From positions 23,362 to 87,361 of the forward strand of contig JBGFSC010000047.1 in NCBI GenBank assembly GCA_041694815.1: a stretch of DNA of 64,000 nucleotides, in the 5' to 3' direction. Numbering within the stretch: the first letter of the stretch is position 1; every line of letters starts with the position of its first letter. The translations under genes and the position numbers were made by a program. A model generated the notes under the pieces. It was not told the DNA's origin. It worked only from the letters and a program-made list of their open reading frames with translations, and did not search any database. Origin of the DNA: Elusimicrobiota bacterium (GTDB lineage Bacteria > Elusimicrobiota > Elusimicrobia > UBA1565 > JACRDR01). Positions 5,426-60,948 of the stretch are shown in pieces.

Positions 5426-6499
5426 ATGGCGCATATGAAAGCAAAGGATCATTTCGTCCGTTTGACCCCCGGCAAGTTGATGGGGCTTCGTCAGATCACC
5501 GACTCCAACAACCGCTTCAAGGTCCTCGCCCTGGACCAGTCGAATTCGTTCAAGAAGGCCCTGCGCGCCATGCATGAGAAGGCCGGCAAGCCAGCGGAGC
5601 CCTCCTACGAGGAGATCCGCGACGTGAAGGTCGAGATGGTCCGCGTTCTCGGCGAATACGCCAGCGCCACCCTGCTCGACGTCAATTTTGGGGCCCGCCA
5701 GGCCCTCAACTCCCTGGCCCTGCCCAAATCGGTGGGCCTGATCGTGCGCTCGGAGGCCTCTAAGGACGCGGGCCTACCCTCCGAATATGAGCCGGGCTGG
5801 AGCGTGGAGAAGATTAAGCGCATGGGGGCCGCGGCCGTGAAGCTGCTCGTTTACCTCGACACCGAGGACGCGGCCAACGTCAAGGCACAGATCGCCTTTG
5901 TCGAGAAGGTATCGAAGGCCTGCGCCGAGCAGGATATCCTGCTCATGACCGAGGAGCTCTCCTTCCCCCGCAAGGGCGAGGAAAAGTCCAGCCCCGCTTA
6001 CCAAGCGCGCAAGGTCAAGAATATCCTCGAGGCCACCCGCCTCATCGGCCCGCACACCGACATCCTCAAGCTGGAGTTTCCCGGCAATATCAAGGAGGAC
6101 CCGGCCTCTAAACTGCAGGAGAACCTCGGCAAGCTCGACGAGGCGGCGATCCGCCCATGGGTGCTGCTGTCGGCAGGCGAGAAATTCGACCTGTTCGTCA
6201 AGCAGGTGGAGCTGGCGATGAAGGCCGGCTGTTCGGGATACATGGCCGGGCGCGCCATCTTCAACGAATATTTCGAGCAACCGAACGCATCGGCGCGCGG
6301 CCAATTCCTCAACGGGACGGGGGTCGAGCGCATGCGCACCCTCAACAAGATCATCGACGCCCACGCCCAAAGCTGGCTGGACCGCTACGGGATCAAGCCG
6401 GCCGAGCTCGCCGCCGCGGTAGCGTCCGACTGGTATCTCGATGGACGCTCGCCCGCAGCCTCCCGCCAGCCCGCCGCGGCCGTCCACGGGGATTATTGA
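5426..6499 (+). CDS. class I aldolase of the tagatose-1,6-bisphosphate aldolase (LacD) family
   Basis: GGAGGA RBS 6 nt upstream of ATG 5426. Blocks VLALDQSNSFKKAL, AAAVKLLVYLDTEDA, LKLEFPGN, WVLLSAGEKFDLF align with LacD as recalled from memory. ORF-track start at 5030 is an upstream extension. Confidence 0.6.
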   Translation: MAHMKAKDHFVRLTPGKLMGLRQITDSNNRFKVLALDQSNSFKKALRAMHEKAGKPAEPSYEEIRDVKVEMVRVLGEYASATLLDVNFGARQALNSLALPKSVGLIVRSEASKDAGLPSEYEPGWSVEKIKRMGAAAVKLLVYLDTEDAANVKAQIAFVEKVSKACAEQDILLMTEELSFPRKGEEKSSPAYQARKVKNILEATRLIGPHTDILKLEFPGNIKEDPASKLQENLGKLDEAAIRPWVLLSAGEKFDLFVKQVELAMKAGCSGYMAGRAIFNEYFEQPNASARGQFLNGTGVERMRTLNKIIDAHAQSWLDRYGIKPAELAAAVASDWYLDGRSPAASRQPAAAVHGDY

Positions 6500-6501
6500 C
6501 C

Positions 6502-7563
6502 GTGCCAAAGCCCAAGCGCATCGGCATCCTCACCGGCGGTGGTGATTGCCCGGGGCTCAATCCGGCCATCCGCGGCGTCGTGCTCCAGGCACGGCAATTG
6601 GGTTTCGAATGCGTCGGCCTGCTCGACGGCTGGAAAGGGATGATTGAGGCGCGCTCGCGCCCCCTCTCGGCCCGCGACGTGGAGGAGATCGTCGGCAAGG
6701 GAGGGACGATACTGGGAACCTCCAGGACCAACCCCTACAAAAAGGACGGCGGCCCGGCCAAGTGCCTCGAGACGCTCCGCAATCTCGACCTCGCGGCCCT
6801 GGTGGCGATGGGTGGCGAGGATACCCTCGGGGTGGCGGCCAAGCTGCACAAGGAGCACCGCTTTCCGGTGATCGGGGTCCCCAAGACGATGGACAATGAT
6901 CTCTCCGCCACCGATTACACCTTCGGCTTCGACACCTCCGTGACCATCGCCGTCGACGCGGCTGAGCGCCTGCGCGATACCGGGCGCAGCCACAAGCGCA
7001 TCATGGTACTCGAGGTCATGGGACGCCACGCCGGGTGGGTGGCGCTGTTTACCGGCATCGCCGCGGGCGCCGACTACGTATGCCTGCCCGAGCGGCCCGT
7101 TGACGTCGAGGACATGACGGCCAAGCTCAAGGCGGCGCACGCCAGGAAGGGAGTGGCCCTGGTCGTCGCCAGCGAGGCGATCGAGCTGCCCGGTGACAAG
7201 AAGGAGGAAAAGCTCGACGAGTTCGGGCATATGATCCTCAAGGAGCGCGGCGTGGCGGAGCGCCTGACCTCCCTCATCGGCGAGAAGACGGGCATCGAGA
7301 CGCGCTCGGCCGTCATCGGCCACATCCAGCGCGGCGGCCCCCCCACCCTCTTCGACCGCATCCTGGGCACCCGGGTGGGCGTGAAGGCGGCGGAGCTCGT
7401 TTCCGCCGGAGATTTCGGCAAGATGGTGGCCCTCCAAGGCGACTCCGTCGTCGCCGTGCCGCTCGAGAAGGCCACCGGCGAGCTTAAGACCGTGCCTCCC
7501 CGGTGGCTGGCCCTGCTCGACGGCCTCACCGCCGCCGAGGCGCCCATGGGGGCCGGGGTCTAG
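6502..7563 (+). CDS. pfkA: 6-phosphofructokinase (PfkA family, possibly PPi-dependent)
   Basis: RIGILTGGGDCPGLN, MGGEDTLGVAAKL, GHIQRGGPPT motifs; GTG start at 6502 immediately after the aldolase stop. Confidence 0.8.
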   Translation: MPKPKRIGILTGGGDCPGLNPAIRGVVLQARQLGFECVGLLDGWKGMIEARSRPLSARDVEEIVGKGGTILGTSRTNPYKKDGGPAKCLETLRNLDLAALVAMGGEDTLGVAAKLHKEHRFPVIGVPKTMDNDLSATDYTFGFDTSVTIAVDAAERLRDTGRSHKRIMVLEVMGRHAGWVALFTGIAAGADYVCLPERPVDVEDMTAKLKAAHARKGVALVVASEAIELPGDKKEEKLDEFGHMILKERGVAERLTSLIGEKTGIETRSAVIGHIQRGGPPTLFDRILGTRVGVKAAELVSAGDFGKMVALQGDSVVAVPLEKATGELKTVPPRWLALLDGLTAAEAPMGAGV

Positions 7564-43619: not shown

Positions 43620-43620
43620 A

Positions 43621-45551: not shown

Positions 45552-46618
45552 CGGGGCCGCCCTCGCTGGAAAATCGGGTCGTCGGGGTCGGGTATATAGG
45601 GTGCGACAGCAGCGATCTTCGTGGCCCCTTCGCCGCTGCAGCCGTTTAGGGCACAGGTCTTGACCCGGGCGCAGCGGTCCTCGCCGTACGGGTAGTCATA
45701 ATCCGACTCACCGTCGACCAAAATTCCCTCCACCTCGAGCGTCCGGGCGTTGAGGACAGGGCTGCCGGAATTGCCGTGGAAGCTGTCGAGGGTGGTCGTG
45801 AAGCGGTTTAGGTCCTGCACGTCCCGTGCGACAGCGTTGCCGGCGATCTTGGTCGGCAGGCCAGCCGGATGGCCGATGATGAGTATGGGGGCTCCGGGTT
45901 CGATGTAACCCGTCCGGTTGATCCTCAGCGGCGCATGGTCCGGGACCGAGCGGTCCAGGCGGATCAGCGCCCAGTCGGGCAGGGATGCCGGCTGGGGCGG
46001 CGTGGGGTCGGGATACGGCTCTATCTTGCGGCGTGTCGGGCTGTAGGTCCCGCCGCCGAAGCCGCCGCCAGTGACCGGGCCTTCCACATAACCGCGCGCG
46101 ACGACGGAGCGGCAGGCGTAGACCTGGTCGCCCGGCGCGCCGCGGGGGTATTCCCCCTCCTTCTTAACGCTGAACCCGAATACGAAACGGATCATCTCGC
46201 AGGCCGCTTCGGAGGCGACGCAATGCCCCGCCGTCAGTACCAGGTCCGGGGCCACGAGAAAGCCGGAGCAGAAGGGACCCACCGGCTGATCGGCAAAGCG
46301 CTCCCCTTCGCAGAGGAAGGCGTAATCCCGATATACGCGCGTATCTAGGTCGAACCAGTCGACGTAACCTGGGTCCAGGCGCGGGGTGCGGTCATCGGCG
46401 GGCGCCTTCCAGCGGCGCACGTTATAGGTCCAAAAAAGCCCGACCGTCGAATCCGCCAGGCGGCGAAGCGCCGGGTCTTCTATTTCGTAAAGGTCTTTAC
46501 GATCGTCTTGCCCGTATATGGTCGGCCCGGGCCGGGACGGCGGGGCCCCGGTCGGGGCGCTATATAAAGGAGAGCCTGCCAATAAAAAGGCTAGCGCGCG
46601 CAGGATAGGGGGGGGCAC
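45548..46618 (-). CDS. secreted S1B serine protease, paralog 4
   Basis: TAGHCV, DWALIRLD, GNSGSPV; signal peptide MPPPILRALAFLLAGSPLYSA. Confidence 0.7.
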   Translation of the reverse strand: MPPPILRALAFLLAGSPLYSAPTGAPPSRPGPTIYGQDDRKDLYEIEDPALRRLADSTVGLFWTYNVRRWKAPADDRTPRLDPGYVDWFDLDTRVYRDYAFLCEGERFADQPVGPFCSGFLVAPDLVLTAGHCVASEAACEMIRFVFGFSVKKEGEYPRGAPGDQVYACRSVVARGYVEGPVTGGGFGGGTYSPTRRKIEPYPDPTPPQPASLPDWALIRLDRSVPDHAPLRINRTGYIEPGAPILIIGHPAGLPTKIAGNAVARDVQDLNRFTTTLDSFHGNSGSPVLNARTLEVEGILVDGESDYDYPYGEDRCARVKTCALNGCSGEGATKIAAVAPYIPDPDDPIFQRGRPR

Positions 46619-46746: not shown

Positions 46747-47790
46747 CTACTCGTCCAAGCTGAACGCCTTGATACCGGCCGGGTCGCGCTTTTGCGCGAG
46801 GAAGCGCAGGTTCACGCTGAACCAATGCGTGTTGTAGAGGGAATCGATGCTGTACTGGAAGGCGTAGTCGATCGAGATGCCGGCCGAGCGCGTATCCCAC
46901 GCGTAGCCGAAGCCCGCGGTCGGGTCGTAGGCGTTGGCGCCGGCTCGCAGCCAGAACCCCTTGTAAGCCTTCCACTCCCCGCCCAGGTGCACCTTTAGGT
47001 TCTGGTCCCGCGCCTTGACGAAGTCCAGGGCAAGGCTCCATTTCGGATTCGGCGAATAGGCGGTCCCTAACACGTACTTGGTCGTGACCGGCTCGCTGTA
47101 GCTATACTCCGCGCCGATATTATCGTCGCTCAATTTCCAGTCCAGCGCGCCGCTCAGGTCACGGACCAAGAAACCTAGGTCGAATTTTCCCCACCGCGTC
47201 TGCGGCAGACGGTAAATCGCCCCGACGTCGAAGGAATTGCCGTCGGCGGAGGCGGCGTGCAGTTTCTGCGTCAGGATCTTGCCCGTGAACCCGACTGAAA
47301 AATTCTCGATCGCCTGCAGGCCCAGCGAGAAATAGTAGGCGTGCTCGGAGTTCTCGAAGTTGCTTTGCGGCTGGCCGAACTCGCTGCGTCCCTCGATGTT
47401 CTTGGTGGCGAAGGAGGCGAGGCCCCCTGCCAGCGCGATGTAGATGCTCTGGGAGCCTTGGCGGAAATCCCAACCCTCGTGCCGGATCGTCCAAGGCAGC
47501 AGGTAGCCGACGAAGTACAGCGACCGGTCGATTCCGAGCACGCCGGAATTCGTCGCCAAGGAATGGGCGGGCACGAAGGTCATCAGCCCGGGGTTGGCGA
47601 GCAAAGCCGTCGCGTCCATGGGCTCCAGTGCGGCGCGGGCCTGGCCCATGGCGATGGCCCTCGCCCCGGCGACCAGGTCAAGGTAGGCCGCAGCCCCCTT
47701 GGCGTACCCGGAATCCTCGGCAAGAGCGGTGCCGGCGGACAGCAAAAGAACCGCGGACGCGGCGGCAAGTCCTTTCAACGCCCGACCCAT
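46747..47790 (-). CDS. outer-membrane beta-barrel protein (possibly PorP/SprF- or PorV-like)
   Basis: signal peptide MGRALKGLAAASAVLLLSAGTALA, alternating beta-strand pattern, C-terminal aromatic; directly downstream of a T9SS-CTD cargo gene. Confidence 0.4.
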   Translation of the reverse strand: MGRALKGLAAASAVLLLSAGTALAEDSGYAKGAAAYLDLVAGARAIAMGQARAALEPMDATALLANPGLMTFVPAHSLATNSGVLGIDRSLYFVGYLLPWTIRHEGWDFRQGSQSIYIALAGGLASFATKNIEGRSEFGQPQSNFENSEHAYYFSLGLQAIENFSVGFTGKILTQKLHAASADGNSFDVGAIYRLPQTRWGKFDLGFLVRDLSGALDWKLSDDNIGAEYSYSEPVTTKYVLGTAYSPNPKWSLALDFVKARDQNLKVHLGGEWKAYKGFWLRAGANAYDPTAGFGYAWDTRSAGISIDYAFQYSIDSLYNTHWFSVNLRFLAQKRDPAGIKAFSLDE

Positions 47791-49601
47791 TTGAGCACCG
47801 CGATCTTGCCGGTAGCCGAACGCTCGCCCATGCTGACGCGGTAGAGGTAGACCCCGTTGGCGACGTCCGCGATCGGCCAATTCACTTCCTGCCAGCCGGC
47901 GCCCGGGGCATTGACGCTCAGGGTTCGGATGGCGCGGCCCGCGGTAGTAAAGAGCTGGATCTCGGCGGAGCCGGCGGACTCGGCGTAAAAGGTTATTTTG
48001 GCGCTTCCCTGATGCACGGGATTCGGGTAGGAAAAGCTCTGTAATTGATTGCCGGCCGAGAGGACGGAAGGGTTCGTCGAGGCTCCTGCCTCAGTCGTGT
48101 CCGTCACGATGGCCTGGAAGTAGGAGTCGGCGCGCCCGGCCGCGACGATCCGGACGGTGTAGGTCCCAGCGGGGAGGCTGCCCACCGCGTAGGTCCCGTC
48201 GGTCTGCGTCGTGGCGGCGCCGATCTGCACGCCTCCGTTGAGCACCGTCACCGCGGCGCCGGCGATGGGGACGCCGTAGATGTCTGTCGCCTGGCCGTAG
48301 ACCGCGTTGGGAATATTGGTGAGGAAAACGTTGCGTAGCACGTTCACGGAGCTGGCTCCTACCTGCGTAATCACACTGAAAGTCTGAGTACCCAGGTTGC
48401 GGCCCACGGCCTTCACCCTCCAGTCCACCTCGGCGGTGGCCGAGGACGCCACCACTCCGCTGCCGGCGACTACCTCGATCGGCTTGGTGGCCGTCTCGCC
48501 CGTATCCAAGGAGAAGCCCGGCCTAAGGCGCAGCGTGGCCTGCGCGCCTGAAACGGCCGAAGCGGTGACGTTCGAGAAGAAAGCCGATACGACGAAGGGG
48601 GATGGATGATACACGTACGAATTCCCCTGCACCTCGCCCGTGAGTTCGGCCGGGGCAAACAGCCCTATCTGGAAAGGCGACCAGTTCTGGAAGGTGTAAT
48701 CCCCCAGCCCATAGAGGATGGCGAAGCTGGTGGTGCCCCCCGGCAGGAGATTGATCGCCTTGGCGTCTGGATACCCCCACCAAACGATCACCGAACTGTC
48801 GCTGTCGGGGCTGGATCCGGAGATCTTGCCGTCGTTGTTGTTGTCGAGGAAGGAGCGCGTGGGATCGACCGTATAATCCCAAGCGCCGCTCGAGATGGGC
48901 CAGTAACCGAATACCAGCCGATCCGGAGTCTTGTAGCCGATATTATTAAAGGTAAACAGCCCGATCGCCGTCGGGTTGGCCAGGCTGTCGAAAACGAGGG
49001 TCGTCAATGGGATGCTGCTGACGTTCACGGTGGCCGGGTCGTTGTCGAACTGCCTGTCCTTGGTGATCTCCCCTACGAAAGGGACCCGGAAAGGCGCGCC
49101 GTCGTTGGATCCCAGCATCGTGTCGAGCTGCACGCGCAGGCCGACGTTGTGGGCGACGCTATCGAGATTAGTCAATTGGTAGAAGATCTCCACCGTATCC
49201 TGGTTCCGGGTGCCCCTAGACTTAACGATGCTTAAGCGCTCGGTGACGCGGATATTCGCCGTCGTGATGTTCACCGTGCCGACCATGCCGCTCAAGATCG
49301 CGCCGGTGCTCGAGCCGGTATGGATGGAGTAGGAGGTCGCGTCCACACGGAGCATCGTGTCGCTCGTCGAGGCGCCGGGGTGCCCGAAGAGCAGCTTGCG
49401 CCCCGCCCCGTCGCCGATGGTGAATTTGCCGTCGTCCTTGAGCGTGACCTGAATGAAAGAGTTATTGTTGGTGACTGTGGCGGCCGGGGCGAAGGCGGTC
49501 CGCGCCGATTGCGTCGCGTAGGACGACTTGGATTGGACGGGAGCGTTTTGGGCCCAAAGAGGCGACGCGCAGAGCAGCCAAAGCACGGGAGCCGGTCGCA
49601 T
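47775..49601 (-). CDS. cell-surface protein with T9SS-type C-terminal sorting domain and CarboxypepD_reg-like domain
   Basis: C-terminus SYPNPV...LFTTAGR...GVYLYRV...KIAVLK matches the Por-secretion CTD pattern; signal peptide MRPAPVLWLLCASPLWAQ (start 49601). Confidence 0.6.
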   Translation of the reverse strand: MRPAPVLWLLCASPLWAQNAPVQSKSSYATQSARTAFAPAATVTNNNSFIQVTLKDDGKFTIGDGAGRKLLFGHPGASTSDTMLRVDATSYSIHTGSSTGAILSGMVGTVNITTANIRVTERLSIVKSRGTRNQDTVEIFYQLTNLDSVAHNVGLRVQLDTMLGSNDGAPFRVPFVGEITKDRQFDNDPATVNVSSIPLTTLVFDSLANPTAIGLFTFNNIGYKTPDRLVFGYWPISSGAWDYTVDPTRSFLDNNNDGKISGSSPDSDSSVIVWWGYPDAKAINLLPGGTTSFAILYGLGDYTFQNWSPFQIGLFAPAELTGEVQGNSYVYHPSPFVVSAFFSNVTASAVSGAQATLRLRPGFSLDTGETATKPIEVVAGSGVVASSATAEVDWRVKAVGRNLGTQTFSVITQVGASSVNVLRNVFLTNIPNAVYGQATDIYGVPIAGAAVTVLNGGVQIGAATTQTDGTYAVGSLPAGTYTVRIVAAGRADSYFQAIVTDTTEAGASTNPSVLSAGNQLQSFSYPNPVHQGSAKITFYAESAGSAEIQLFTTAGRAIRTLSVNAPGAGWQEVNWPIADVANGVYLYRVSMGERSATGKIAVLKWVGR

Positions 49602-49689
49602 GCCGCTAATACGTAACAGGAACTTCAAAAAAATGCAATACATTCTTAGGTGCCTGGGCGAAAGTCAATCCCTGGCACCTAGGCCACGC

Positions 49690-50418
49690 TTAATCGAAAA
49701 CGCGGTAGCGGAGTATGGCGATAAGCACCCGGATTCCATCGCGCCAGAAGCGGATCTTCTTGCCCTCAGCCCTTGAGCGGGCCTTATAGGAGACGGGGAC
49801 TTCCTCGATGCGGCAGCCGCTTCTGACCAGTTTGGCCGAGATTTCCCAATCATAGTCGAAGCCGTCGCTCTTAAACGTGATCCGTTTGAGCCGGTCGGCC
49901 TTGAATACCTTGAACATCGTCGCCCCGTCGCTTAAGCGGGTGCCGTAGAGCAGATTAAAAAGCGTGGTGAATAAGACCCCGCCCAGGTTGACGAAGAAGC
50001 CGTAGAAGCGCTCGAGCCCCTTGAATCTCCTGAACTGCCAGTGCTGGGGTGAGGTGAGTACGCGGGAGCCGAAAACCATCTCGCAGCGCTCTTTTAGGAT
50101 CGGCTCGAGCACAGCGGAATAATCGTCGGTCGAGTACTCCAGGTCCCCGTCCTGGACCAGCACCACGTCGCCGGTGACGAGCTCCAGCCCCGAACGCACG
50201 GCCGCCCCCTTGCCACGCGGACGGTCCTCGAAAACGACGCGCACCCCCTGGCGACCCTCGTAGGAGCGGACGATCTCGCGGGTGCCGTCGCTCGAGTGGC
50301 CCTCGACGATGATGATCTCTTTCTCCACCCCGTGGATTTGAGTCGCGAGCACCCGGTCCAAAAGCGCGCCCACCGTCGCTCGCTCGTTGTAAACGGGGAC
50401 GATGATGGAAAACTTCAC
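49690..50418 (-). CDS. GT2 glycosyltransferase (DPM1-like)
   Basis: FSIIVPVYNE, DGDLEY motifs; GTG start at 50418 (GTGA overlap with the gmhA stop). ORF-track N-terminal 170 aa is a low-complexity extension. Confidence 0.65.
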   Translation of the reverse strand: MKFSIIVPVYNERATVGALLDRVLATQIHGVEKEIIIVEGHSSDGTREIVRSYEGRQGVRVVFEDRPRGKGAAVRSGLELVTGDVVLVQDGDLEYSTDDYSAVLEPILKERCEMVFGSRVLTSPQHWQFRRFKGLERFYGFFVNLGGVLFTTLFNLLYGTRLSDGATMFKVFKADRLKRITFKSDGFDYDWEISAKLVRSGCRIEEVPVSYKARSRAEGKKIRFWRDGIRVLIAILRYRVFD

Positions 50419-51044
50419 CGGTGCTGCTTCAGGAAAAAGGTCAGTATGTGGCCGATGCTCAGGTGCAGGTCCTCGATGACGCCGTACTGGTCGGAGGCGA
50501 CGAGTATCGGCAGCTCGACGAGGCGCTTGAGCTTGCCGCCGTCGAATCCCAAGAGGGCAGCGGTCTTGGCGCCCCGCGCCCGGGCCAGGCGGGCGGCGCG
50601 CAGCAGGTTGGGCGAGTTCCCGCTGCCGCTGACGAGGAGCACCACGTCTCCCCGGCCCACGAGATTCTCCATCTGCCGCGAGAATATCTCGTCGAAGGAT
50701 AGATCGTTGCCGATGGCGGTGATGAGAGAGGTATTGTCGGCTAGGGATAGGCAGCGCAGCTGCTCGCGTCCCGGCACGGACGCCGTTTTCGAGAGGTCGG
50801 TGGCGATATGCGAGGCGGTGGCCGCCGAGCCGCCGTTTCCCATGACGAACACCGTGCGCTTCGAGCGTCGCGCGGCGAGCACCCATTCCGCAAGCCTGCC
50901 GACTCCCTCGAAATCGAGCTCCTCCCATTGGGCTAGAGCCTGGTTGCGGTACCAGCGGGCAAAGCCCTCGGGCGAAAGCCCCCCAGGCCCGGTCTTGTGG
51001 ATACGGCCGGGCAGAGTCCCTCGAATCCTGTTATTGGCTGACAT
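50415..51044 (-). CDS. gmhA: sedoheptulose-7-phosphate isomerase (SIS domain)
   Basis: GNGGSAATASH and VLLVSGSGNS SIS motifs; ATG 51044. Confidence 0.75.
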   Translation of the reverse strand: MSANNRIRGTLPGRIHKTGPGGLSPEGFARWYRNQALAQWEELDFEGVGRLAEWVLAARRSKRTVFVMGNGGSAATASHIATDLSKTASVPGREQLRCLSLADNTSLITAIGNDLSFDEIFSRQMENLVGRGDVVLLVSGSGNSPNLLRAARLARARGAKTAALLGFDGGKLKRLVELPILVASDQYGVIEDLHLSIGHILTFFLKQHR

Positions 51045-52002
51045 AGATGATTTTGGAGCCCTCCGGCTCGAAGCGGAACGGGATCTCGCGCCAGCCGCGC
51101 AGCACGCGCACGACCTTGGCCCGCTTGGCCGGCGGGCAGAAGAGCAGGAGGAACCCTCCGCCCCCCGCGCCGAGTATCTTGCCCCCCACGGCCCCGGCGC
51201 GCCGGGCCGCCTGGTAGGCCGCGTCGATGTGCGGCGTGCTGATGCCTCCGGCGAGGCTTTTCTTGAGTTCCCAGCCCTCGCGCAGCGTCTCGCCGACGGC
51301 CTCGACGCGCCCTGCCTGCAGCTCGCGACGCAGGGACTCCGCCTGGCGGCGCATGGCCTCGAGCGTCTCCTCATGCGCCTTGTACTGCGCCCGCGCGCGG
51401 CGCAACAACGGTGCCGCCCGTCGGGTGACGCCGGAGTACAGCAGCGCGAGGTGCTCGCCCAGGCGCTGGAAGGTACGCACCGGGCAGATTAGGGGATCGA
51501 CGCGCACGCTCTCGTCCGGCATGAACTCCATGAATTGGAAGCCGCCGTAGGCGGCGATGTACTGGTCCTGCTTGCCGATGGGCTCCTTGAGCCGCTCGAT
51601 TTCAACTTCGCAGGCCTCGCGGGCCAGTTGCTCGGCCGTCCTAAACTCTCCCTTGAAGGCGTGCAGGGCGTGGAGCACGCCCACCGTAAAGCTCGAGGAG
51701 GATCCCAGCCCCGTCCCGCCGACCACGTCGGCCATCGAGGTGATCTCCACGCCCTTTTCGATGCCCGCTTTGCGCAGGCATTCCCGCAGCAGGGGGTGCT
51801 GCACCTCGTCGACCTTCGACACGAGCTCGGTGCGCGAATACTTCAGGATGATATGGTCGTCGAAATAGCGGTTGACCGTTACGTACATGTACTTGTCGAT
51901 AGCGGTCGACACCACCGCCCCGGCCGAGCTGCGGTAGAATTCGGCCAGATCCGTGCCGCCGCCGGCGAAGCTCACCCGAAACGGCGTCCTCGAAATAATC
52001 AT
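51031..52002 (-). CDS. hddA: heptose 7-phosphate kinase-like GHMP kinase (second copy)
   Basis: MIISRTPFRVSFAGGGTDL and GLGSSSSFTVGVLHAL; ATGA overlap with the upstream gene. Confidence 0.7.
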   Translation of the reverse strand: MIISRTPFRVSFAGGGTDLAEFYRSSAGAVVSTAIDKYMYVTVNRYFDDHIILKYSRTELVSKVDEVQHPLLRECLRKAGIEKGVEITSMADVVGGTGLGSSSSFTVGVLHALHAFKGEFRTAEQLAREACEVEIERLKEPIGKQDQYIAAYGGFQFMEFMPDESVRVDPLICPVRTFQRLGEHLALLYSGVTRRAAPLLRRARAQYKAHEETLEAMRRQAESLRRELQAGRVEAVGETLREGWELKKSLAGGISTPHIDAAYQAARRAGAVGGKILGAGGGGFLLLFCPPAKRAKVVRVLRGWREIPFRFEPEGSKIIYVSQ

Positions 52003-53279
52003 GCCCGCGCCGTCCGTCGACTGTCTTCGATCACCCATTCGGCGGCACGCAGCACGTCATCGCAGATGCTGTCGGGCTTGGCCGGGAAGCGGCCGTCCTT
52101 GCCGGCGTTTCCCGTGCGCACAAGGACGGCGCGGCAGCCCGCGTTGCGGGCGGTTTGGATGTCGCGGGTCGAGTCGCCGATGAAATAGGACCGGGAGATG
52201 TCGATGCCCAGCCGCCGCGCCGCCGCGCCGAGCATTCCCGTCTTGGGCTTGCGGCAATCACAGTCGCGCCGGTAGCGGGGGTCGCTGGCCTCCGGGTGAT
52301 GCGTCTCGGGGTGGTGCGGGCAGTAGTAAAGGGCGTCTAGCTCGGCCCCGCCTTCCTTGAGCAGGGCCTTGAGCCGCTCATGGATGCGGCCGAGCCCTTC
52401 CTCGTCGACGAGCCCCCGGGCGACCACCGGCTGATTGGTCGCGAGCACGACCAGCGCCCCAGCCTCGCGCAACCGGCGCACCGCCTCGGCGGCGCCGGGG
52501 AGCAGGCGCAGGTCCTCCGGCCGTGACACTAGCCCGAGATCGTCGGTGAGCACGCCGTCGCGGTCGAGGAAGGCGGCCCATTTGCGGCTGCGCGCGAAGG
52601 ATTCGGCGCGCTCCGGAGTGCCGATGTCGACGATCTCCTCGCCGCAGCGGTAGGCCATTAGCTCCAGCCCCTGCGCGAGCGCCGCGGGAAAAATGTCGCG
52701 CCCGAAATCGCTGGGGGCATCCTTGGGGACCAGCTCGAGCAGACTCGGACGAAGCACCCAAACAGCGGCGCAGGCCAAGTTCTCGAAGGCCTCGCCGGGG
52801 GCGGCCCGAAAGAAAGCGGTGATTCGGTCACCCTCGGTCCGGACCAGGTCGGAATCGAGTGGGTGCCCGCTGGGATGGACAACGAGGGTGGCGGCGGCGG
52901 CGTGGCTTTCATGGAAGCGCAGCAGCTTGGCGCAGTCGAGGGCGACATAGAGGTCTCCATAGACGACAAGTACGTCGCTCGAGAGCCCCAAATCGCGCAC
53001 CGCGCCGGCCGTCCCCCGCGGCTCCTTTTCGACCTGGTAGCGAAGCTTGAGCCCCCAGCGTGAGCCGTCGCCGCAGTGCGAACGGATCATCTCGGCCTTG
53101 TAACCGAGGCACAGGCATACGTCCCGCACGCCAGAGCTCTGGAGCCACTCCAATTGATGCTCGAGCAACGGCTTGCCGGCGAGCGGCAGCATGGGCTTGG
53201 GAACCTGGTCGGTCGCCGGGCGCATGCGAACGCCGCGGCCGCCGGCTACGATGGCCGCTGGCAGCATTCCGGAACCCAT
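51999..53279 (-). CDS. bifunctional nucleotidyltransferase (HddC-like) / HAD heptose-bisphosphate phosphatase (GmhB-like) fusion
   Basis: N-terminus AAIVAGGRGVRMRP...PKPM nucleotidyltransferase; C-terminal HAD motifs FLDRDGVL...DD and IGDSTRD. Confidence 0.65.
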   Translation of the reverse strand: MGSGMLPAAIVAGGRGVRMRPATDQVPKPMLPLAGKPLLEHQLEWLQSSGVRDVCLCLGYKAEMIRSHCGDGSRWGLKLRYQVEKEPRGTAGAVRDLGLSSDVLVVYGDLYVALDCAKLLRFHESHAAAATLVVHPSGHPLDSDLVRTEGDRITAFFRAAPGEAFENLACAAVWVLRPSLLELVPKDAPSDFGRDIFPAALAQGLELMAYRCGEEIVDIGTPERAESFARSRKWAAFLDRDGVLTDDLGLVSRPEDLRLLPGAAEAVRRLREAGALVVLATNQPVVARGLVDEEGLGRIHERLKALLKEGGAELDALYYCPHHPETHHPEASDPRYRRDCDCRKPKTGMLGAAARRLGIDISRSYFIGDSTRDIQTARNAGCRAVLVRTGNAGKDGRFPAKPDSICDDVLRAAEWVIEDSRRTARA

Positions 53280-53287: not shown

Positions 53288-54940
53288 TTAAGGAGTGGGC
53301 GGGGGCAGAACCATCGGCCTTTCTGGTTTTAACTCCGAGCGCTGCAGCTCCACTTCCTGGAGCAGCAGGCTGGGGTTCACCGTGGAGGTCGGCAAGGATC
53401 CCGACGCATGTTCCGAGAGGGAGTCAGTAACTTCGAAATCGTCGCCGGCCGCGAGTATGCGGCCCGCCAGATCGAGCGGAGTGCCGACCAAGTCGAGATC
53501 GCGGACGAGAGTCTGCCGCCCGCTGTCGGTCTCGACGAGGTAAACGCGCGTCGGGACCAAGCGCAGGGCTTGCTGCTGCCCAGTCTTATCCTGCTGCCTC
53601 CAGCTGCGCACTCCCTGGATGTAGACCCCGTACGGCTTGCCGCGGCGGCGGCATTCCTCACGCAAGAGTTCCAGCAGGTGGGGCTTGGAAAGAGGCCGAT
53701 TCGAACGGAGAAATAGATTACCCGCCCGGCCCGTCGGCATCAGGCCGGGCGCCGCGCGCCCATGCCCGTTGGAGCGGCCGAATCCAATGACAGGGTGCCG
53801 CGAGAGCAGAAAGCCGCGCAATACCCCATTCTCCACTAATACGGTTCTGCGCGGCTCCACGCCTTCCTCGTCGACGTGATAATGCCCGAGCAGGGCGCGT
53901 CCTCGGAATTCACGCAGGGTCGGATCGTCCTCGAGACTGAGGAATGGCGGCATCACCGCCTTGCCCAATTTGTCGCGGAATGTCTGGGCCCCATCCGGAT
54001 CGCGCTGCTGCTCGCCCGAAAGCCGCAGGGCGAAGGCCTGCAGGACGGCGGCCCCCACGGACGGGTCGAGCAGGGCGGGGGCGTTGAAGGGAGACGTGGA
54101 AGAAGCCTCCGTGAGGGCGGCCATGTCTTCGGCCATGGCCTGGATCTCGGCGGAAAGTCGTTCTCCCTGGGGCAGGCCCGAGGCGTCACGGGCCATGTAG
54201 GAACGCGCTAGTTTCGTACGCATGCCCTCGGGGCTCAGGCCTTCCGCCTCCAGCTGCAAACGGAACCAAGAATCCCCATAGCGCACACGGCTTCCCTCGG
54301 AATCGATGTGCAGGTTGCCCAACGCCTGCCAGCTGAGCTCGGCCTGGGAATCGAGCACGTGTGTCCTGCCGGCCAAACCTCGCGACGCCTCCAGGCACGC
54401 CTGCCGGCCCGCCCCCTCGAAGGCCTCCCGCTCGCGCTCGAGATCCGGCCTTGGGAAATCACGGCGCAGCGGCGTCTGGCGGCTGCGGTCATCGGTGTCG
54501 TATTCCGTCGGCCCACGGCGCACGCGCAACGCCTGCTTGCGCAGCAGGGCCGCCGCGGCCTTCTTGTATTCCGCGTCCAGGTGGAACCACGTGAAGTGCC
54601 TTACGGAAAGTTCGTCCGCCCCGTCGGGCATCTCGCGTCCCTTGAAACCCTCCGAGGCGCCTAAGGGATGGTTATCGAGCTCGTAGCCGCCAACCCGCAG
54701 CTCGGGCGTCAACAGGCGCTGGCGGCTGGCGGCGGAGCTTTTCAATCCTCCCGCCGAGCAGCGATGCTCGCCCGAGAGCACGTCGGACACTCGAAGCCCG
54801 ATGTAATACGGAAGTGGGTATCCCTCCTGCCGCAGCGAGCTCGTCGAGCGGGCGATCTCGCGCGCGAGGGCTTCCTCCAGATCCGCGGAGGCAGGAGCGG
54901 CCAGCACGCAGCAGAGCAAGAAGGAGAGGCTACTTCTCAT
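53288..54940 (-). CDS. TldE/PmbA-like (peptidase U62 family, no HExxxH) protein with signal peptide
   Basis: signal peptide MRSSLSFLLCCVLAAPASA; TldD/PmbA-fold C-terminal blocks (GHYHVDEEGV, GVLRGFL, GRSNGHGR) but no HExxxH. Confidence 0.55.
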   Translation of the reverse strand: MRSSLSFLLCCVLAAPASADLEEALAREIARSTSSLRQEGYPLPYYIGLRVSDVLSGEHRCSAGGLKSSAASRQRLLTPELRVGGYELDNHPLGASEGFKGREMPDGADELSVRHFTWFHLDAEYKKAAAALLRKQALRVRRGPTEYDTDDRSRQTPLRRDFPRPDLEREREAFEGAGRQACLEASRGLAGRTHVLDSQAELSWQALGNLHIDSEGSRVRYGDSWFRLQLEAEGLSPEGMRTKLARSYMARDASGLPQGERLSAEIQAMAEDMAALTEASSTSPFNAPALLDPSVGAAVLQAFALRLSGEQQRDPDGAQTFRDKLGKAVMPPFLSLEDDPTLREFRGRALLGHYHVDEEGVEPRRTVLVENGVLRGFLLSRHPVIGFGRSNGHGRAAPGLMPTGRAGNLFLRSNRPLSKPHLLELLREECRRRGKPYGVYIQGVRSWRQQDKTGQQQALRLVPTRVYLVETDSGRQTLVRDLDLVGTPLDLAGRILAAGDDFEVTDSLSEHASGSLPTSTVNPSLLLQEVELQRSELKPERPMVLPPPTP

Positions 54941-56588
54941 GGAACGGAGAGGGAAGGAGGGGTGGGCGCGAGCGCTCCTCGGGCAGGCGCTGCAGCTCCA
55001 CCTCCGACAACAGCAGGCTCGGGGCGATCTGGTTGACGGCGACCGAGCCCGATTCGGCGCCGCAATTGAACGGATTGGAGAGCTTGCTGTCGTCTCCGGC
55101 GGAAAGTATCCGGCTGAGCACCACGAGGGGGGTGCCCACCATCTTAACGCCGCGCACGGGCGTCTCCTCGCCCGTCTTAGCGTCTACGCGGAACACCAGC
55201 CGCGGGCGAACCTCCAAGGTTTGCGCCGCGCGACGGTTGTTAGGGTTCTCGCCGCCGGAGGAGCCAACCAGCCGCAGGCCGTATGGTTTTCCCCGCGCAC
55301 GGCAGAGGGCCATCAGGCGGCGCTTGAGCTCCGCGGGGCTGACGGGCTCATGCGGGATCACCATCAAGTTCCCCATCCGCCCGCTCGCATGATGCACCGC
55401 GTCGGCACGCCCGTGCCCGTTGGAGCGCGCAAAGCCACGGATCGGCCAGCGGGACATGAGGAAATTCCTCAGAACGCCGCGCTCTACGAGCGTCACGCGC
55501 TGTGCGGGCACTCCCTCGTCGTCGTAGGTGTAATGCCCGTGCAGGGCCTGTCCGTGGAACTCCTCGAGAGTGGGGTCGTCGACCACACTCAAGAACGGGG
55601 GCAGGATGGTCGAGCCCACCTGATCGCGGAATACCTGGCTCTCGTTCGGATCCCTCTGCCTCTGGCCCTCGAGCTTATGCCCGAGGGCCTCGTGGAAAAA
55701 TACCCCGGCGAACTCGGGGTCCATGATGGCGGGAGCCGAGAACGGGGCTTGGACCGGGGCCTGCCTCGCGGCAGAGAGCTCCGCGGCCAAGGTGTCGACT
55801 TCCCGCTCCAAAGCCGCCGTCGCGGGAAGCTCGGAAGCCTCGCGCACCGTCCACGCGCGGCGATTATCTAGGCGCATGCCATCGGCCGCGCGCGTCCAAG
55901 CGCTGAGCACGAACAATAACGGCGTATGCTCGCTCGGTGCCGCGATGCGGGTCCCCTCGCTGGTAAGCAGGTAGCGCCGCGAACGGCTCAGCGAAGCGAA
56001 GGCGTAGCTGCCGTAGACGAACGGGTAGCGTTTGAAGCGCGCACTGGCGGCCTCCAAGGCAGGCCGTAGCGAGTCGATATCGGCCTCGGGAGCCTGCGGC
56101 AGGAAGGCCTCGCTCGGGGGCTCCGCGGAAAAATCGTCCAAGCGCTCGCGGTCGAGCTCCGTGGCCTTGCGGGCCTTCTTGTCGAGATAATCGGCCACGG
56201 CTGATTTATAGGATTCGTCGGTAAGTTGCCAGAGCTGGTGGCGCAGCACGCCGGCATCTATCGAGGCGGGACCCGATCGCCCATGGTAGCTGAGGTCGGT
56301 GTTATCGAAAGCGGGAGAGCCAAAGCGCGTCTCCACGTAGAGCGTGCGGTCGCGTTCTACGCCGCCGCGCAGCTGGGCCCCGAGCGCGTAGACCAGGCGT
56401 TGGGAACTCTCATCGCTTAAGCGGTAAGCGATGAAATAAGGAGGGCCGAAGGAGTCCAAGCGCAGGCGCTCGATCGATCGATCCATCTCCGCGCGCATCG
56501 CTGAGAAGATCGCGAGGTCGGCGGCCGTCGGCGTGGAAGCGGCCGAGGCCGGGCAGGCCAGGACCGCGATGAGGAACGCGAGGCGCAT
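54930..56588 (-). CDS. TldD-like zinc metalloprotease (U62) with signal peptide
   Basis: signal peptide MRLAFLIAVLACPASA; HEALGH (HExxxH) motif; GHYTYDDEGV, GFARSNGHGR blocks. Confidence 0.6.
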   Translation of the reverse strand: MRLAFLIAVLACPASAASTPTAADLAIFSAMRAEMDRSIERLRLDSFGPPYFIAYRLSDESSQRLVYALGAQLRGGVERDRTLYVETRFGSPAFDNTDLSYHGRSGPASIDAGVLRHQLWQLTDESYKSAVADYLDKKARKATELDRERLDDFSAEPPSEAFLPQAPEADIDSLRPALEAASARFKRYPFVYGSYAFASLSRSRRYLLTSEGTRIAAPSEHTPLLFVLSAWTRAADGMRLDNRRAWTVREASELPATAALEREVDTLAAELSAARQAPVQAPFSAPAIMDPEFAGVFFHEALGHKLEGQRQRDPNESQVFRDQVGSTILPPFLSVVDDPTLEEFHGQALHGHYTYDDEGVPAQRVTLVERGVLRNFLMSRWPIRGFARSNGHGRADAVHHASGRMGNLMVIPHEPVSPAELKRRLMALCRARGKPYGLRLVGSSGGENPNNRRAAQTLEVRPRLVFRVDAKTGEETPVRGVKMVGTPLVVLSRILSAGDDSKLSNPFNCGAESGSVAVNQIAPSLLLSEVELQRLPEERSRPPLLPSPFHEK

Positions 56589-56591: not shown

Positions 56592-58022
56592 TTACTCTAC
56601 CAAATAAAGCGTTCTGCCCTCGGCGACGGCCCTCGGAGCCATGCGCAGCGGCAGAGAGAAGGGGCGCCAATCGGGAGGTAGGCGTTCGGGCACCACGGCC
56701 ACCGGCTCGCCCGAGCGACGCAGGGCATCGATACGCTTGGCCAGCGAGGCCCGGTCGTGGTAGCGCAGGCTGAGCGTCTTGCGGTGGGCGAAATAGGGGA
56801 CGTAGACGCGGTCGACCCCTTCGGCTAGAATCCAAGTATCCTCACTAGTCTCGCGCCCGACCCAAAGACTGTATTGCAGATCGGCGTTGAGCGCAGGATC
56901 CGCGCCCGGACGTATCACACGGGCCCAGTTCCATAAGCCCAAGGCCGCCGCGGCTAGGCACGCGAGTAGCGGGGCCCGGTCGAAGGGGAGGCCGGAGAGG
57001 CCCAACGCGATCAAAAGCCACAACGGCGCCAGGTCGCTGTAGCGGTAGACAACGGTTCCCGACTCCCAGGAAAGATAGAGCAAGGCGTAGCCTGCCAGCC
57101 AGGCCACGGCGAGTCGGACGGGCTTAGATCCCAGCCCCCCCTTGATCGCTCCCCATGCCGCCAGGCACCAACCGAGCGCGCCCGCCCAGACGCCGGCGCC
57201 GAAAAGCTGCAGCGAGCGCGTTAGCCAAGTGAGTAGGTTGGGCATCGAATAGCCGCCATGCCAGTCGAATTGGCGGTCGACCGTGAGCGCCGCGCTGCCC
57301 AAAAGCCATACCCGAAGCTCCTCCCACGAGCCTGGCCGCATGATGAACGCGCCCGCCGCGAGATACGCCGCGCCTACGGTGGAACCGAGGGCCAGGAGGT
57401 ATCGCCGCCGGGCGCAGGTATCCTTAAGCAGCCAAATCGCCGCCGGAGCGAGCATCAAATGCCCCACATGCCCCAGGACGGCGCCAGCCTGGAGCAGCCC
57501 GATTATGATGGGCCTCTGGCTTGGCCGCAACAGCTCTACCGCGGCGCAGAACGCGAAAAAGGCGCCCAGGGGATAGACCTGCGCCTCCAGCGACCAGCGC
57601 CAGTAGACATCCGACACCGCCAGACACGCGGCGACGCACGCTGAGAATCGCCGGTCAAAGCCAGAGCGGCGCATCATGAGGAAAAAAGCTCCCACCCCCG
57701 CCGCTCCCAGAAGGGAGCTCAATGCCTGCAGCGAGAGGAGCGCCGGCCCCGAGTACCCCAAGATCTTCCAGAATTCGAAGAAGAGCCAGCCTAAGAATCC
57801 GTAGGCGAGATGGTTGCCGTGCACGAGATGCTTGAGATCCCCCAACTCCACGGCGATGGCGCAGGCCACCCCGTCGTAATTGTAACGGGCGGCCGGGAAA
57901 CTCAAGTACAGTCCCGCCACTAGCACGAAGAGGAGCGCGGCCCAACGGACGGGCCGGTCTAGCGGAGACACCGTCGAATTTCGCGACCTGGATGAATCGC
58001 GACCCCGTCGATCATGTAGCAA
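56592..58022 (-). CDS. polytopic membrane protein, putative GT-C/GT87-like glycosyltransferase
   Basis: about 12 TM helices; first ~25 residues of the ORF are low-complexity, so the true start is probably internal. Confidence 0.35.
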   Translation of the reverse strand: MLHDRRGRDSSRSRNSTVSPLDRPVRWAALLFVLVAGLYLSFPAARYNYDGVACAIAVELGDLKHLVHGNHLAYGFLGWLFFEFWKILGYSGPALLSLQALSSLLGAAGVGAFFLMMRRSGFDRRFSACVAACLAVSDVYWRWSLEAQVYPLGAFFAFCAAVELLRPSQRPIIIGLLQAGAVLGHVGHLMLAPAAIWLLKDTCARRRYLLALGSTVGAAYLAAGAFIMRPGSWEELRVWLLGSAALTVDRQFDWHGGYSMPNLLTWLTRSLQLFGAGVWAGALGWCLAAWGAIKGGLGSKPVRLAVAWLAGYALLYLSWESGTVVYRYSDLAPLWLLIALGLSGLPFDRAPLLACLAAAALGLWNWARVIRPGADPALNADLQYSLWVGRETSEDTWILAEGVDRVYVPYFAHRKTLSLRYHDRASLAKRIDALRRSGEPVAVVPERLPPDWRPFSLPLRMAPRAVAEGRTLYLVE

Positions 58023-58119
58023 GCGCGCGGCGATACCAGGCGATGGTCGCGCGCAGGACGCGGTCGGTCATCTCGGAGAGGCGGGTGCCCATGCCCCCCG
58101 CCAGGATGGCGACTTTCAT
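58012..58119 (-). pseudogene. 35-codon remnant of a sugar-1-phosphate nucleotidyltransferase (RfbF/RmlA-like) N-terminus
   Basis: MKVAILAGGMGTRLSEMT matches the G-x-G-T-R-L nucleotidyltransferase N-terminus, then diverges and stops; ATG overlaps the upstream gene stop (ATGA), i.e. positioned like a former full-length gene. Confidence 0.45.
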
Positions 58120-60439: not shown

Positions 60440-60948
60440 GCCCCCCCCTTCGCATAGGCGCACGGGGAGAATACGTACCAGTCAAGACGCATCTGGTAGT
60501 AGTCCCCCTTGTCCTCGGCGATGCTGAAACCGCATTTCTGATACCAGCCGACGGCGGGATTGCCACAAAGCACCTTGCAGCCGATCTCCCGGGTATGCTC
60601 GGCGGCGATGAAGCTGCACATCAGGGTCATGGCGCGGCGCAGCACGCCGCGCCCAGTCGCCTGGGGCGTGCCAATGATATTGTAGCAGTCGGCCGCACCG
60701 CCCAAGAGCCTAAAGCCCATGCATCCCGCCTTGAGGTTTTCCCACTCGACGACGAACATGTGATCGTCCGGGCGCGCCAGAAAGCCCTCGTACCAGCGCC
60801 GCTGCATCTCGGGCGTAATCTCGTCCTTGAAGAAAAAGGCCCGGCGGTTGGCGTTCTTCCAGACTCGAAGATCTTCCAAGTCGGACTCGTCGATGGAGCG
60901 CAGCGATACGTCCAAGGAGGGTCCCTCGAGGACCAGGCGGGCTTTCAC
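60436..60948 (-). CDS. GNAT-family N-acetyltransferase
   Basis: GNAT-like core (FVVEWENLKAGCMGF...GRGVLRRAM); GTG start 60948 overlapping the upstream stop. Confidence 0.45.
   Translation of the reverse strand: MKARLVLEGPSLDVSLRSIDESDLEDLRVWKNANRRAFFFKDEITPEMQRRWYEGFLARPDDHMFVVEWENLKAGCMGFRLLGGAADCYNIIGTPQATGRGVLRRAMTLMCSFIAAEHTREIGCKVLCGNPAVGWYQKCGFSIAEDKGDYYQMRLDWYVFSPCAYAKGGA

Follow-up and report, generated by a model that had tools for sequence, protein, structure and literature searches.

Nucleotide-activated heptoses are building blocks of lipopolysaccharide cores, capsules and S-layer glycans, they act as innate-immune agonists, and the enzymes that make them are drug targets. The known GDP-heptose pathway relies on an isomerase of the SIS family (GmhA), a GHMP-family kinase (HddA), a HAD-IIIA phosphatase (GmhB) and a nucleotidyltransferase (NTase) of the NTP_transferase family (HddC). 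The same four activities and families are encoded by an operon that we analyzed in a stretch of 64,000 nucleotides (nt) from an Elusimicrobiota bacterium (assembly GCA_041694815.1, contig JBGFSC010000047.1, positions 23,362 to 87,361), hereafter the window. In this operon, phosphatase and nucleotidyltransferase form a single polypeptide, the isomerase departs from the canonical active site, and the last gene encodes a glycosyltransferase of family 2 (GT2) whose closest structural relatives act on polyprenyl phosphates.

The operon spans positions 53279-49690 of the minus strand and comprises four genes (genes 1-4 in Table 1), each with its stop codon overlapping the start codon of the next; it forms part of a longer series of genes read in the same direction, and the genome is of the Elusimicrobia type. 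A preliminary description, made from the sequence alone, had proposed a translationally coupled minus-strand operon of gmhA, kinase and fusion genes at 50415-53279. Its coordinates, domain count and quoted motifs were all right and its three genes stand, but the fourth coupled gene, encoding the GT2, had been overlooked. Mechanical calling of open reading frames (ORFs) gave 52038..51031 for the kinase, whose true start is likely the ATG at 52002, overlapping the TGA of the fusion gene (ATGA); the called gmhA ORF (51374..50415) is too long, and its likely start is the ATG at 51044, which creates a 14-nt overlap with the kinase end. The GTG start of the GT2 gene overlaps the gmhA TGA (GTGA). The closest Elusimicrobia relative, locus L012, has the same overlap arrangement downstream of the fusion region, including the 14-nt kinase/gmhA overlap.

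Pfam and NCBIfam identified all four domain activities, so the module is complete, as had been claimed. The window was also said to hold a single gmhA and a single gmhB domain, and indeed neither Pfam on about 54 ORFs nor tblastn (E ≤ 10) found any further sequence of the SIS or HAD-IIIA type within these 64 kb. Scans of the window for tRNA genes and Rfam families gave no match. The four activities can be regarded as one functional unit, because GmhA relatives of the same variant clade are elsewhere fused to HAD, GHMP kinase or nucleotidyltransferase domains (SIS-HAD, GHMP-SIS and NTase-SIS fusions). In nature, each pair among the four activities is met in fused form.

The best explanation for this operon, which we hold with slightly better than even confidence, is a route leading from sedoheptulose-7-phosphate (S7P) through GDP-heptose to polyprenyl-phosphate-heptose, followed by transfer outside the cytoplasm by glycosyltransferases of fold C (GT-C). 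The variant GmhA would isomerize the ketose phosphate, S7P, to a heptose-7-phosphate (a C7 sugar, presumably of manno configuration), and the HddA-type kinase would phosphorylate O1 to yield the alpha-1,7-bisphosphate. The C-terminal HAD-IIIA (GmhB) domain of the fusion would then take off the 7-phosphate, and the N-terminal domain would join the resulting heptose-1-phosphate to GMP from GTP, so that one polypeptide, apparently born by the loss of 19 nt across a stop/start junction, would unite these two consecutive steps. Finally, the co-translated GT2, similar to dolichyl-phosphate-mannose synthase (DPMS), ArnC and GtrB, would move the heptose onto polyprenyl phosphate, and one of the many neighboring GT-C (PMT_2) enzymes would spend the lipid-linked sugar on the outside of the membrane. 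The analysis shows the domains, their intact catalytic motifs, the coupling of the genes, how the fusion arose, the fold class of the GT2 and the conserved synteny; the identity of the sugar, the use of GTP, polyprenyl phosphate as acceptor and GT-C enzymes as consumers are inferred.

The fusion protein is predicted to combine a sugar-1-phosphate nucleotidyltransferase (residues ~1-230) with a GmhB-like HAD-IIIA heptose-1,7-bisphosphate 7-phosphatase (residues ~234-426). In keeping with the proposed architecture, Pfam recognized both NTP_transferase (residues 9-223, 5.6e-26) and Hydrolase_like/HAD (residues 231-410, 7.9e-18). The best NCBIfam match of the C-terminal half is GmhB (NF006506, 163.8 bits, residues 235-418), its score against the HAD-IIIA model TIGR01662 is 109 (cut-off 44.6), and its relatives in the PDB are 3l8h, 2gmw and 3l8e (GmhB; E ~1e-29 to 1e-31). 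This half carries FLDRDGVL (motif I) and IGDSTRD (motif IV); residues D239, D241, N282/Q283, K344, D369 and D373 are invariant in a 22-sequence alignment, as are C320, H322, C340 and C342 of a GmhB/HisB-type zinc loop (C-x-H...C-x-C). HAD motifs I-IV (DxD, T/S, K, DxxxD) and the zinc loop expected of a GmhB are therefore all present, and the catalytic Asp motifs, on which the claim of a fused phosphatase depended, are intact on alignment.

The N-terminal half, with 7whr and 4y7t as PDB relatives, contains both signatures of HddC, namely the G-x-G-x-R loop (AGGRGVRM) and, as EKEPRGTAGA, the EXEPLGTGGA motif with two substitutions and the equivalent of the guanine-binding Glu80 kept. In HddC, the first Glu of this motif hydrogen-bonds N1 and N2 of guanine (PMC6981941). 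The AlphaFold2 (AF2) model of the fusion has a mean predicted local distance difference test (pLDDT) of 87.6, with both domains confidently folded and helix 222-230 passing almost straight into strand 235-238, which bears the DxD.

The kinase of the operon (paralog 2) has both GHMP_kinases_N and GHMP_kinases_C domains by Pfam, and among solved structures it is closest to WcbL and HddA (E = 3e-42). Residues R13, D22, S118-120, Q162 and D163 of WcbL, each essential by mutagenesis (PMC4691232), correspond to R9, D18, S101-103, Q145 and D146, and pairwise alignment finds all of them in the second kinase of the window (paralog 1) too.

Some of the scores weigh against placing these enzymes squarely in the GDP-heptose pathway. 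No operon enzyme reaches its curated NCBIfam equivalog cut-off: the GmhB domain falls just under (178 being required), GmhA obtains 111.8 bits against TIGR00441 (cut-off 209.45), and the HddA model NF049969 (cut-off 600) gives 153.3 bits for paralog 2 and 146.2 for paralog 1. The nucleotidyltransferase half scores 72.7 bits against the HddC model NF049965 (cut-off 300), with only residues 8-126 aligned; only residues 8-121 (the N-terminal ~120) align with Yersinia pseudotuberculosis HddC (6jq8), and the best scores of this half are against mannose-1-phosphate guanylyltransferases and MurU.

The isomerase adds a further difficulty. It matches SIS_2 (Pfam, 2.8e-17) and TIGR00441 (NCBIfam, 3e-32), and it has the SIS fold with the GNGGS and S-x-S-G-x-S-x-N substrate loops of GmhA; however, alignment to Burkholderia pseudomallei GmhA shows that the canonical residues D61, H64, E68, Q175, E176 and H183 are T, H, D, E, D and H, respectively, in the window protein. 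In the canonical enzyme, H64, E68, Q175 and H183 coordinate the catalytic zinc, are needed for activity and were described as "completely conserved" among orthologues; the D61A mutant keeps 6% activity, and Q175E traps substrate (PMC5705639). The window protein has H-D-E-H in place of this tetrad.

This is not a peculiarity of one protein. Among 1.84 billion cluster representatives, searched exhaustively with HMMER, 444 matched at E ≤ 1e-30, and H-D-E-H is carried by 142 of the best 150. When 124 variant sequences were compared with 19 canonical ones, the sole group-specific differences at shared conserved columns were E68D, Q175E and E176D, D61 being usually replaced as well. The GNGGS and S-x-S-G-x-S-x-N loops, H64, H179 and H183 are identical in the two groups. 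Since both loops bind the substrate phosphate, their identity speaks for an equal substrate length in both clades. Kinases at least 42% identical to paralog 2 accompany a variant GmhA in 16 of 18 fetched loci and a canonical GmhA in 0 of 14 (Fisher p = 5e-7, with no phylogenetic correction). The window GmhA thus belongs to a large variant clade that co-occurs with its own kinase clade. Its product could differ from that of the canonical enzyme and may not be D-glycero-D-manno-heptose. Single members of the variant clade show other architectures: P0298 carries a Clp_N domain, P0245 has a second SIS domain in tandem, and P0296 (one case) is fused to the pyrimidine-binding and C-terminal domains of transketolase, which physically connects the isomerase with a family of enzymes whose products include S7P and other ketose phosphates.

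A remodeled isomerase might yield another heptose epimer, or the whole module might work on a hexose (fructose-6-phosphate to mannose-6-phosphate, mannose-1,6-bisphosphate, mannose-1-phosphate and GDP-mannose, feeding mannosylation of the DPMS/PMT type). HygP, which we take to be a member of the GmhA family, provides an analogy for the first option, as it shows that isomerization of S7P can set another stereochemistry (altro). HygP is the S7P isomerase of hygromycin B biosynthesis, and its product is not a manno-heptose (PMC10948575). The near-uniform substitutions at E68, Q175 and E176 and the covariation with a separate kinase clade would fit a different sugar, as would the mannose-1-phosphate guanylyltransferases that best match the NTase half, the Dol-P-Man synthase that best matches the GT2, and a partner GT-C family named for protein mannosylation; moreover, WcbL binds mannose (PMC4691232) and HddC has been assayed with alpha-mannose-1-phosphate (PMC6981941). 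We nevertheless judge a different sugar rather improbable, since all four best family matches are heptose-pathway enzymes, the phosphate-binding loops point to an unchanged substrate length, and every heptose-contact residue of WcbL tested by mutagenesis is kept.

The fused architecture is abundant in public data, a fact that had escaped the preliminary description. Our protein search of 5.8 billion sequences gave 3,307 matches, and all of the best 120 that were listed (120/120) combine NTP_transferase with HAD, at 42-48% identity to the window fusion, its own protein aside; a scan of one genome per species brought up 589 relatives. Fused proteins that match from end to end are present in Verrucomicrobiota, Firmicutes, Bacteroidales, Leptospirales, Spirochaetes, Saccharibacteria, Planctomycetes, Alphaproteobacteria and others, with Holdemanella biformis and Nitrospirillum amazonense among the cultured carriers, and most of these relatives adjoin an HddA-type kinase and a GmhA. 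A literature search yielded no report of an HddC-GmhB fusion or bifunctional enzyme and no biochemistry of any fused member. Some relatives (P0024, P0032, P0051, P0063, P0096, P0104 and P0109) are three-domain fusions of ~630-640 residues; precomputed Pfam annotation adds PRK in P0096 and P0109 and also AAA_18 in P0096 (P-loop kinase domains), which suggests that a different type of kinase joined the NTase-HAD pair.

Exact-sequence look-ups of the fusion and the kinase matched no record, and homologs supplied the genomic context; the nearest loci are from Elusimicrobia, at 58-78% identity. The nearest relatives of the window protein, all from Elusimicrobia metagenome-assembled genomes (MAGs), have split genes. 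We examined five such loci (L012, L039, L081, L082 and L083), and in none of them are the two domains fused. In L012 (64-70% identity; ORFs 5986..6732 and 6734..7312), the NTase gene ends with TAG and gmhB starts 1 nt later in another frame; in L039 and L081, gmhB lies several kb from the NTase gene on the opposite strand; L082 has separate HAD and NTase genes, and in L083 the HAD gene is not in the cassette. Relative to L012, the window DNA lacks exactly 19 nt, corresponding to the L012 stop codon, the 1-nt spacer, the ATG and flanking bases. Because stop and start codons are missing with respect to the closest relative, where the genes are split, we conclude that the fusion arose in this lineage through the secondary joining of two translationally coupled neighbors; it appears to be recent and independent of the widespread fused family.

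One may object that a spurious deletion during sequencing or assembly merged two adjacent genes, given that all five relatives keep them apart and that the source is probably a MAG itself. An artefact at the junction is unlikely, and we give it hardly any credence: the gap is clean, shows no homopolymer slip and restores the frame exactly, the identical architecture is abundant and functional-looking elsewhere, the public gene call for this 148.5-kb contig is also fused (P0001), and the AF2 model spans the junction with confident folds on either side.

As for the fourth gene, the best NCBIfam match of its product is AglJ, a dolichyl-phosphate hexose transferase (124 bits), and the best PDB match by sequence is the Pyrococcus Dol-P-Man synthase 5mlz (E = 2e-13, residues 1-219). 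When its AF2 model (pLDDT 89.8) was submitted to Foldseek, the top 20 structures were all ArnC, DPMS or GtrB (structural similarity score, TMq, 0.60-0.77 over ~240 columns). The alignment is full-length and takes in the long helix (134-157) as well as the one at the C-terminus (223-239), so that the glycosyltransferase fold A (GT-A) domain and the interface helices are both accounted for, with polyprenyl-phosphate glycosyltransferases as the closest structures.

Orthologs of this GT2 are 63-81% identical, and all those with an organism name come from Elusimicrobia. In three further contigs, the GT2 gene lies within the kinase/SIS/NTase cassette beside a PMT_2 gene. The gene orders are NTase-kinase-SIS-GT2 in L081 (with a GT-C-like gene, gmhB, TldD, PMT_2 and TldD on the opposite strand), PMT_2 followed by HAD-kinase-SIS-GT2-NTase-PMT_2-GT2-PMT-GT4 in L082, and SIS-NTase-kinase-GT2-PMT_2 in L083. 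In L039, the gene immediately beside gmhB and the GT2 gene, in one operon with gmhB, encodes a polytopic GT-C-like protein; it shares 50% identity with the one encoded at 41396-42703 of the window. GT-C genes thus adjoin in every relative with flanks available (L039, L081, L082 and L083).

A conventional cytoplasmic use of the activated sugar has to be weighed at this point: the heptose would be added to a nascent lipid-diphosphate-linked or other glycan, and the GT-C genes would belong to other pathways. GDP-heptose does feed cytoplasmic capsule assembly in characterized systems (PMC10680097). The GT2 has no transmembrane (TM) helix (no hydrophobic 19-mer above threshold) and so lacks the C-terminal anchor of GtrB, ArnC and archaeal DPMS; the soluble GT-A enzymes GpgS, MpgS and WrtF are close behind in its fold ranking; and no GtrA/SMR-like flippase was found in the window, where no ORF of 60-260 residues has at least three predicted TM segments (three have two, none of them near the operon). 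Two more points count against the lipid-linked route, namely that a literature search found no description of an undecaprenyl- or polyprenyl-phosphate heptose and that synteny across five related MAGs is non-independent evidence. Yet polyprenyl-phosphate glycosyltransferases without an anchor exist, e.g., eukaryotic DPM1. We consider a purely cytoplasmic use unlikely, albeit worth keeping in mind, since the best sequence match and the top 20 structures all belong to the polyprenyl-phosphate glycosyltransferases, with alignments that run the full length, and GT-C genes recur next to the cassette in the relatives.

In favor of the route through polyprenyl-phosphate-heptose, two PMT_2 genes and a GT-C-like gene are encoded with the GT2, as in three-component systems (Table 1), the PMT_2 protein upstream of the operon being a candidate user of the lipid-linked sugar. 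The window as a whole contains seven GT-C-like (PMT_2/ArnT-type) genes and four small DPMS/GtrB-like GT2 genes, together an unusually dense set for glycosylation dependent on lipid-phosphate sugars. One of the GT2 genes (20122-21012) abuts a GT-C gene, and its product is classically GtrB-like, with a pair of TM helices at the C-terminus. Judged from gene content, this GT2/GT-C set looks like a signature of three-component extracytoplasmic glycosylation. More tentatively, and with well under even confidence, we propose that the operon represents a previously unrecognized nucleotide-heptose branch, defined by the H-D-E-H GmhA with its own kinase clade and possibly making a sugar other than D-glycero-D-manno-heptose, that feeds a phylum-wide lipid-phosphate-heptose/GT-C three-component system in Elusimicrobiota.

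A second kinase/nucleotidyltransferase pair (paralogs 1, or pair 1) is encoded elsewhere in the window, as the preliminary description had noted in suggesting two distinct NDP-heptose pools. HddC1 aligns with 6jq8 over its full length (4e-36) and scores 114 bits against the HddC equivalog, under the cut-off of 300. The kinases are 44% and the nucleotidyltransferases 34% identical to each other, values that rule out near-identical recent duplicates and point to old paralogs. Both nucleotidyltransferases probably use GTP and form GDP-sugars, because both keep the guanine-selecting Glu; a different nucleotide for each is unsupported. Nor did the two kinases differ at the five mutagenesis-defined WcbL positions, so the comparison of substrate pockets that the preliminary description had recommended revealed no difference.

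These findings would also suit a single pool with two entry points, the pairs differing only in regulation or channeling, in which case the notion of two pools would be wrong. The pair 1 cluster lacks a gmhA and a gmhB of its own in the window, and it does so too where it is conserved elsewhere, namely on a further Elusimicrobia scaffold (L084) and in a MAG of Chloroflexi (L086); sharing of GmhB between pathways is documented in Campylobacter jejuni (PMC10680097). On the other hand, the paralogs are well diverged and both pairs are retained across Elusimicrobia; the closest relatives of HddA1 outside the phylum (47-50% identity) sit with a canonical, not a variant, GmhA; and the genome may hold canonical gmhA and gmhB genes beyond the window. 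The orthologs of HddA1 and of the GT2 lie ~30 kb apart on one 522-kb Elusimicrobia scaffold, and because both pairs are kept together in at least one other Elusimicrobia genome, a division of labor seems preferable to redundancy. A single pool is, in our opinion, a possibility to be taken seriously but one we would not bet on. The two pairs appear to represent different cassette lineages that would feed different downstream chemistry; to this extent the idea of two pools holds, whereas distinct activated sugars are not established.

The downstream chemistry of pair 1 can be guessed from its cluster (25219-34886), which looks like a yersiniose-style pathway to a two-carbon-branched, 3,6-dideoxy sugar, here built on GDP-heptose. 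Its genes are reminiscent of the routes by which C. jejuni makes GDP-6-deoxy- and 3,6-dideoxy-heptose (PMC10680097), supplemented by a module for two-carbon branching. In the cultured alphaproteobacterium Falsiroseomonas frigidaquae (L072, 5538-13176), one locus encodes a canonical gmhA, an NTase::HAD fusion, an HddA1-like kinase (50% identity) and an ortholog (61% identity) of the window SDR at 30332-31273; this bacterium could serve as a tractable model for a pair 1-type pathway.

Among the other neighbors of the operon (Table 1), the two TldD/PmbA-like proteins have signal-peptide-like N-termini, and their orthologs are interleaved with gmhB and PMT_2 in L039 and L081. The polytopic protein encoded between this pair and PMT_2 is a candidate transporter, flippase or GT-C, and the secreted protein encoded just past the GT2 gene is a possible glycosylation target or surface cargo. 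The genes at 34851-39727 suggest that a glycan is tailored further, through carbamoylation and methylation as well as radical chemistry. Called genes leave just one gap of any size, and it contains a small ORF.

Table 1. Features of the window, with positions counted from its first nucleotide (aa, amino acids; ThDP, thiamine diphosphate; PLP, pyridoxal phosphate; SDR, short-chain dehydrogenase/reductase)
Feature	Position	Strand	Remarks
Gene 1: NTP_transferase::HAD-IIIA (GmhB-like) fusion	51999-53279	-	426 aa
Fusion junction (approximate)	52572-52592	-	encodes ...FARSRKWAAF...
Gene 2: HddA-type GHMP heptose-7-phosphate 1-kinase, paralog 2	51031-52002	-	323 aa
Gene 3: GmhA-like SIS sedoheptulose-7-phosphate isomerase	50415-51044	-	209 aa; variant T-H-D-E-H active-site clade
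Gene 4: GT2, polyprenyl-phosphate sugar synthase type (DPMS/ArnC/GtrB-like)	49690-50418	-	242 aa
Secreted TldD/PmbA-like protein 1	53288-54940	-	8 nt upstream of fusion; PmbA_TldD_3rd
Secreted TldD/PmbA-like protein 2	54930-56588	-	overlaps the first by 11 nt; 52% identity to L081 ortholog
Polytopic protein	56592-58022	-	476 aa; at least 5 predicted TM segments; no Pfam match; upstream of TldD pair, downstream of PMT_2
PMT_2 GT-C, upstream of operon	58116-59573	-	PMT_2 1.7e-11; multiple TM segments
PMT_2 GT-C	60945-62648	-	same strand as operon
Secreted protein	47775-49643	-	622 aa; CarboxypepD_reg and Por_Secre_tail/FlgD_ig C-terminal sorting domain; starts 46 nt past GT2
Gene preceding the four proteases	46747-47880	-	377 aa; no Pfam match
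Four consecutive Trypsin_2 serine protease genes	42621-46618	-	downstream of heptose operon
GT-C-like polytopic protein	41396-42703	+	no Pfam match; 27-30% identity to window PMT_2 proteins; also in L081
GT-C-like gene	39754-41454	-	
Carbamoyltransferase (Carbam_trans_N/C) and radical-SAM/SPASM protein	36879-39727	-	between GT-C genes
GT-C-like gene	35666-36889	-	
Methyltransferase	34851-35684		near carbamoyltransferase/radical-SAM genes
GT4::methyltransferase fusion	~32973-34886	+	pair 1 cluster, after HddC1
HddC-type guanylyltransferase, canonical, paralog 1 (HddC1)	32290-32976	+	exact EXEPLGTGGA (EREPLGTGGA)
HddA-type kinase, paralog 1 (HddA1)	31283-32293	+	
SDR	30332-31273	+	pair 1 cluster
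GMD-like 4,6-dehydratase	29352-30335	+	pair 1 cluster
RfbH/E1-like PLP enzyme (3-dehydratase-like)	~28189-29355	+	pair 1 cluster
E1-beta/transketolase-C-like ThDP protein	~27161-28189	+	pair 1 cluster
PDH-E1-alpha-like ThDP protein	26154-27161	+	pair 1 cluster
SDR epimerase	25219-26187	+	pair 1 cluster
Small DPMS/GtrB-like GT2	24557-25222		
GT-C-like gene	~20963-22784	+	
Small DPMS/GtrB-like GT2	20122-21012		
Small DPMS/GtrB-like GT2	18130-18948		
GT-C-like gene	16137-18137	-	
Inter-gene gap	13049-13733		
ORF in the gap	13053-13334	-	93 aa; XRE-type helix-turn-helix-like

Part of this picture was known already, namely a module of the GDP-heptose type that includes a fused enzyme, of an architecture well represented in databases. 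What goes beyond it is a secondary, datable fusion, an H-D-E-H GmhA clade with a covarying kinase, and the coupling of a DPMS-like GT2 with GT-C genes in Elusimicrobia. The window fusion is a clean example of how a bifunctional enzyme may arise from translationally coupled neighbors by a 19-nt junction deletion. Supposedly universal GmhA residues are systematically replaced in a large, widespread clade that travels with its own kinases, so mechanistic and inhibitor work on the canonical site may not carry over to this clade, whose product may differ. The conserved tie to a Dol-P-Man-synthase-like GT2 and to GT-C genes predicts a lipid-phosphate-heptose donor; if real, such a donor would extend the sugar repertoire of extracytoplasmic glycosylation and offer a first way into the envelope glycobiology of Elusimicrobiota, a phylum poorly represented in culture.

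Compared with the known GDP-heptose enzymes, the window keeps the catalytic and heptose-binding residues of the kinase, the HAD motifs with the zinc loop, and the guanine Glu of HddC. It differs from the known pathway in joining phosphatase and nucleotidyltransferase in one polypeptide, in having D, E and D (plus T) for E68, Q175 and E176 (plus D61) of GmhA, in the separate clade of its kinase, and in a sugar-binding half of the nucleotidyltransferase that is not HddC-like; its scores lie under the equivalog cut-offs, and downstream it has a DPMS-like GT2 and no dehydratases or reductases. As in the GtrA/GtrB/Gtr*, ArnC/ArnEF/ArnT and DPMS/PMT systems (PMC11127046), a GT2 of the polyprenyl-phosphate type is encoded beside GT-C enzymes, whereas the sugar would be a heptose drawn from a GDP donor made by the same operon, the GT2 has no TM anchor, and no flippase was identified. 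The widespread NTP_transferase::HAD-IIIA proteins (~430-450 residues), annotated as "HAD-IIIA family hydrolase" or "D,D-heptose 1,7-bisphosphate phosphatase", share the domain order of the window fusion at 43-48% full-length identity and possess an inter-domain linker of ~13 residues that the window protein lacks. The other enzyme to be considered is HldE, which is composed of unrelated families (a PfkB kinase and a cytidylyltransferase-like domain), unites steps 2 and 4 of the pathway (kinase and nucleotidyl transfer) where the window fusion unites 3 and 4, and makes an ADP-sugar of the beta anomer. HldE nonetheless sets a precedent for two nucleotide-heptose steps residing in one protein, as in the window fusion, a comparison that rests partly on published work (PMC4691232).

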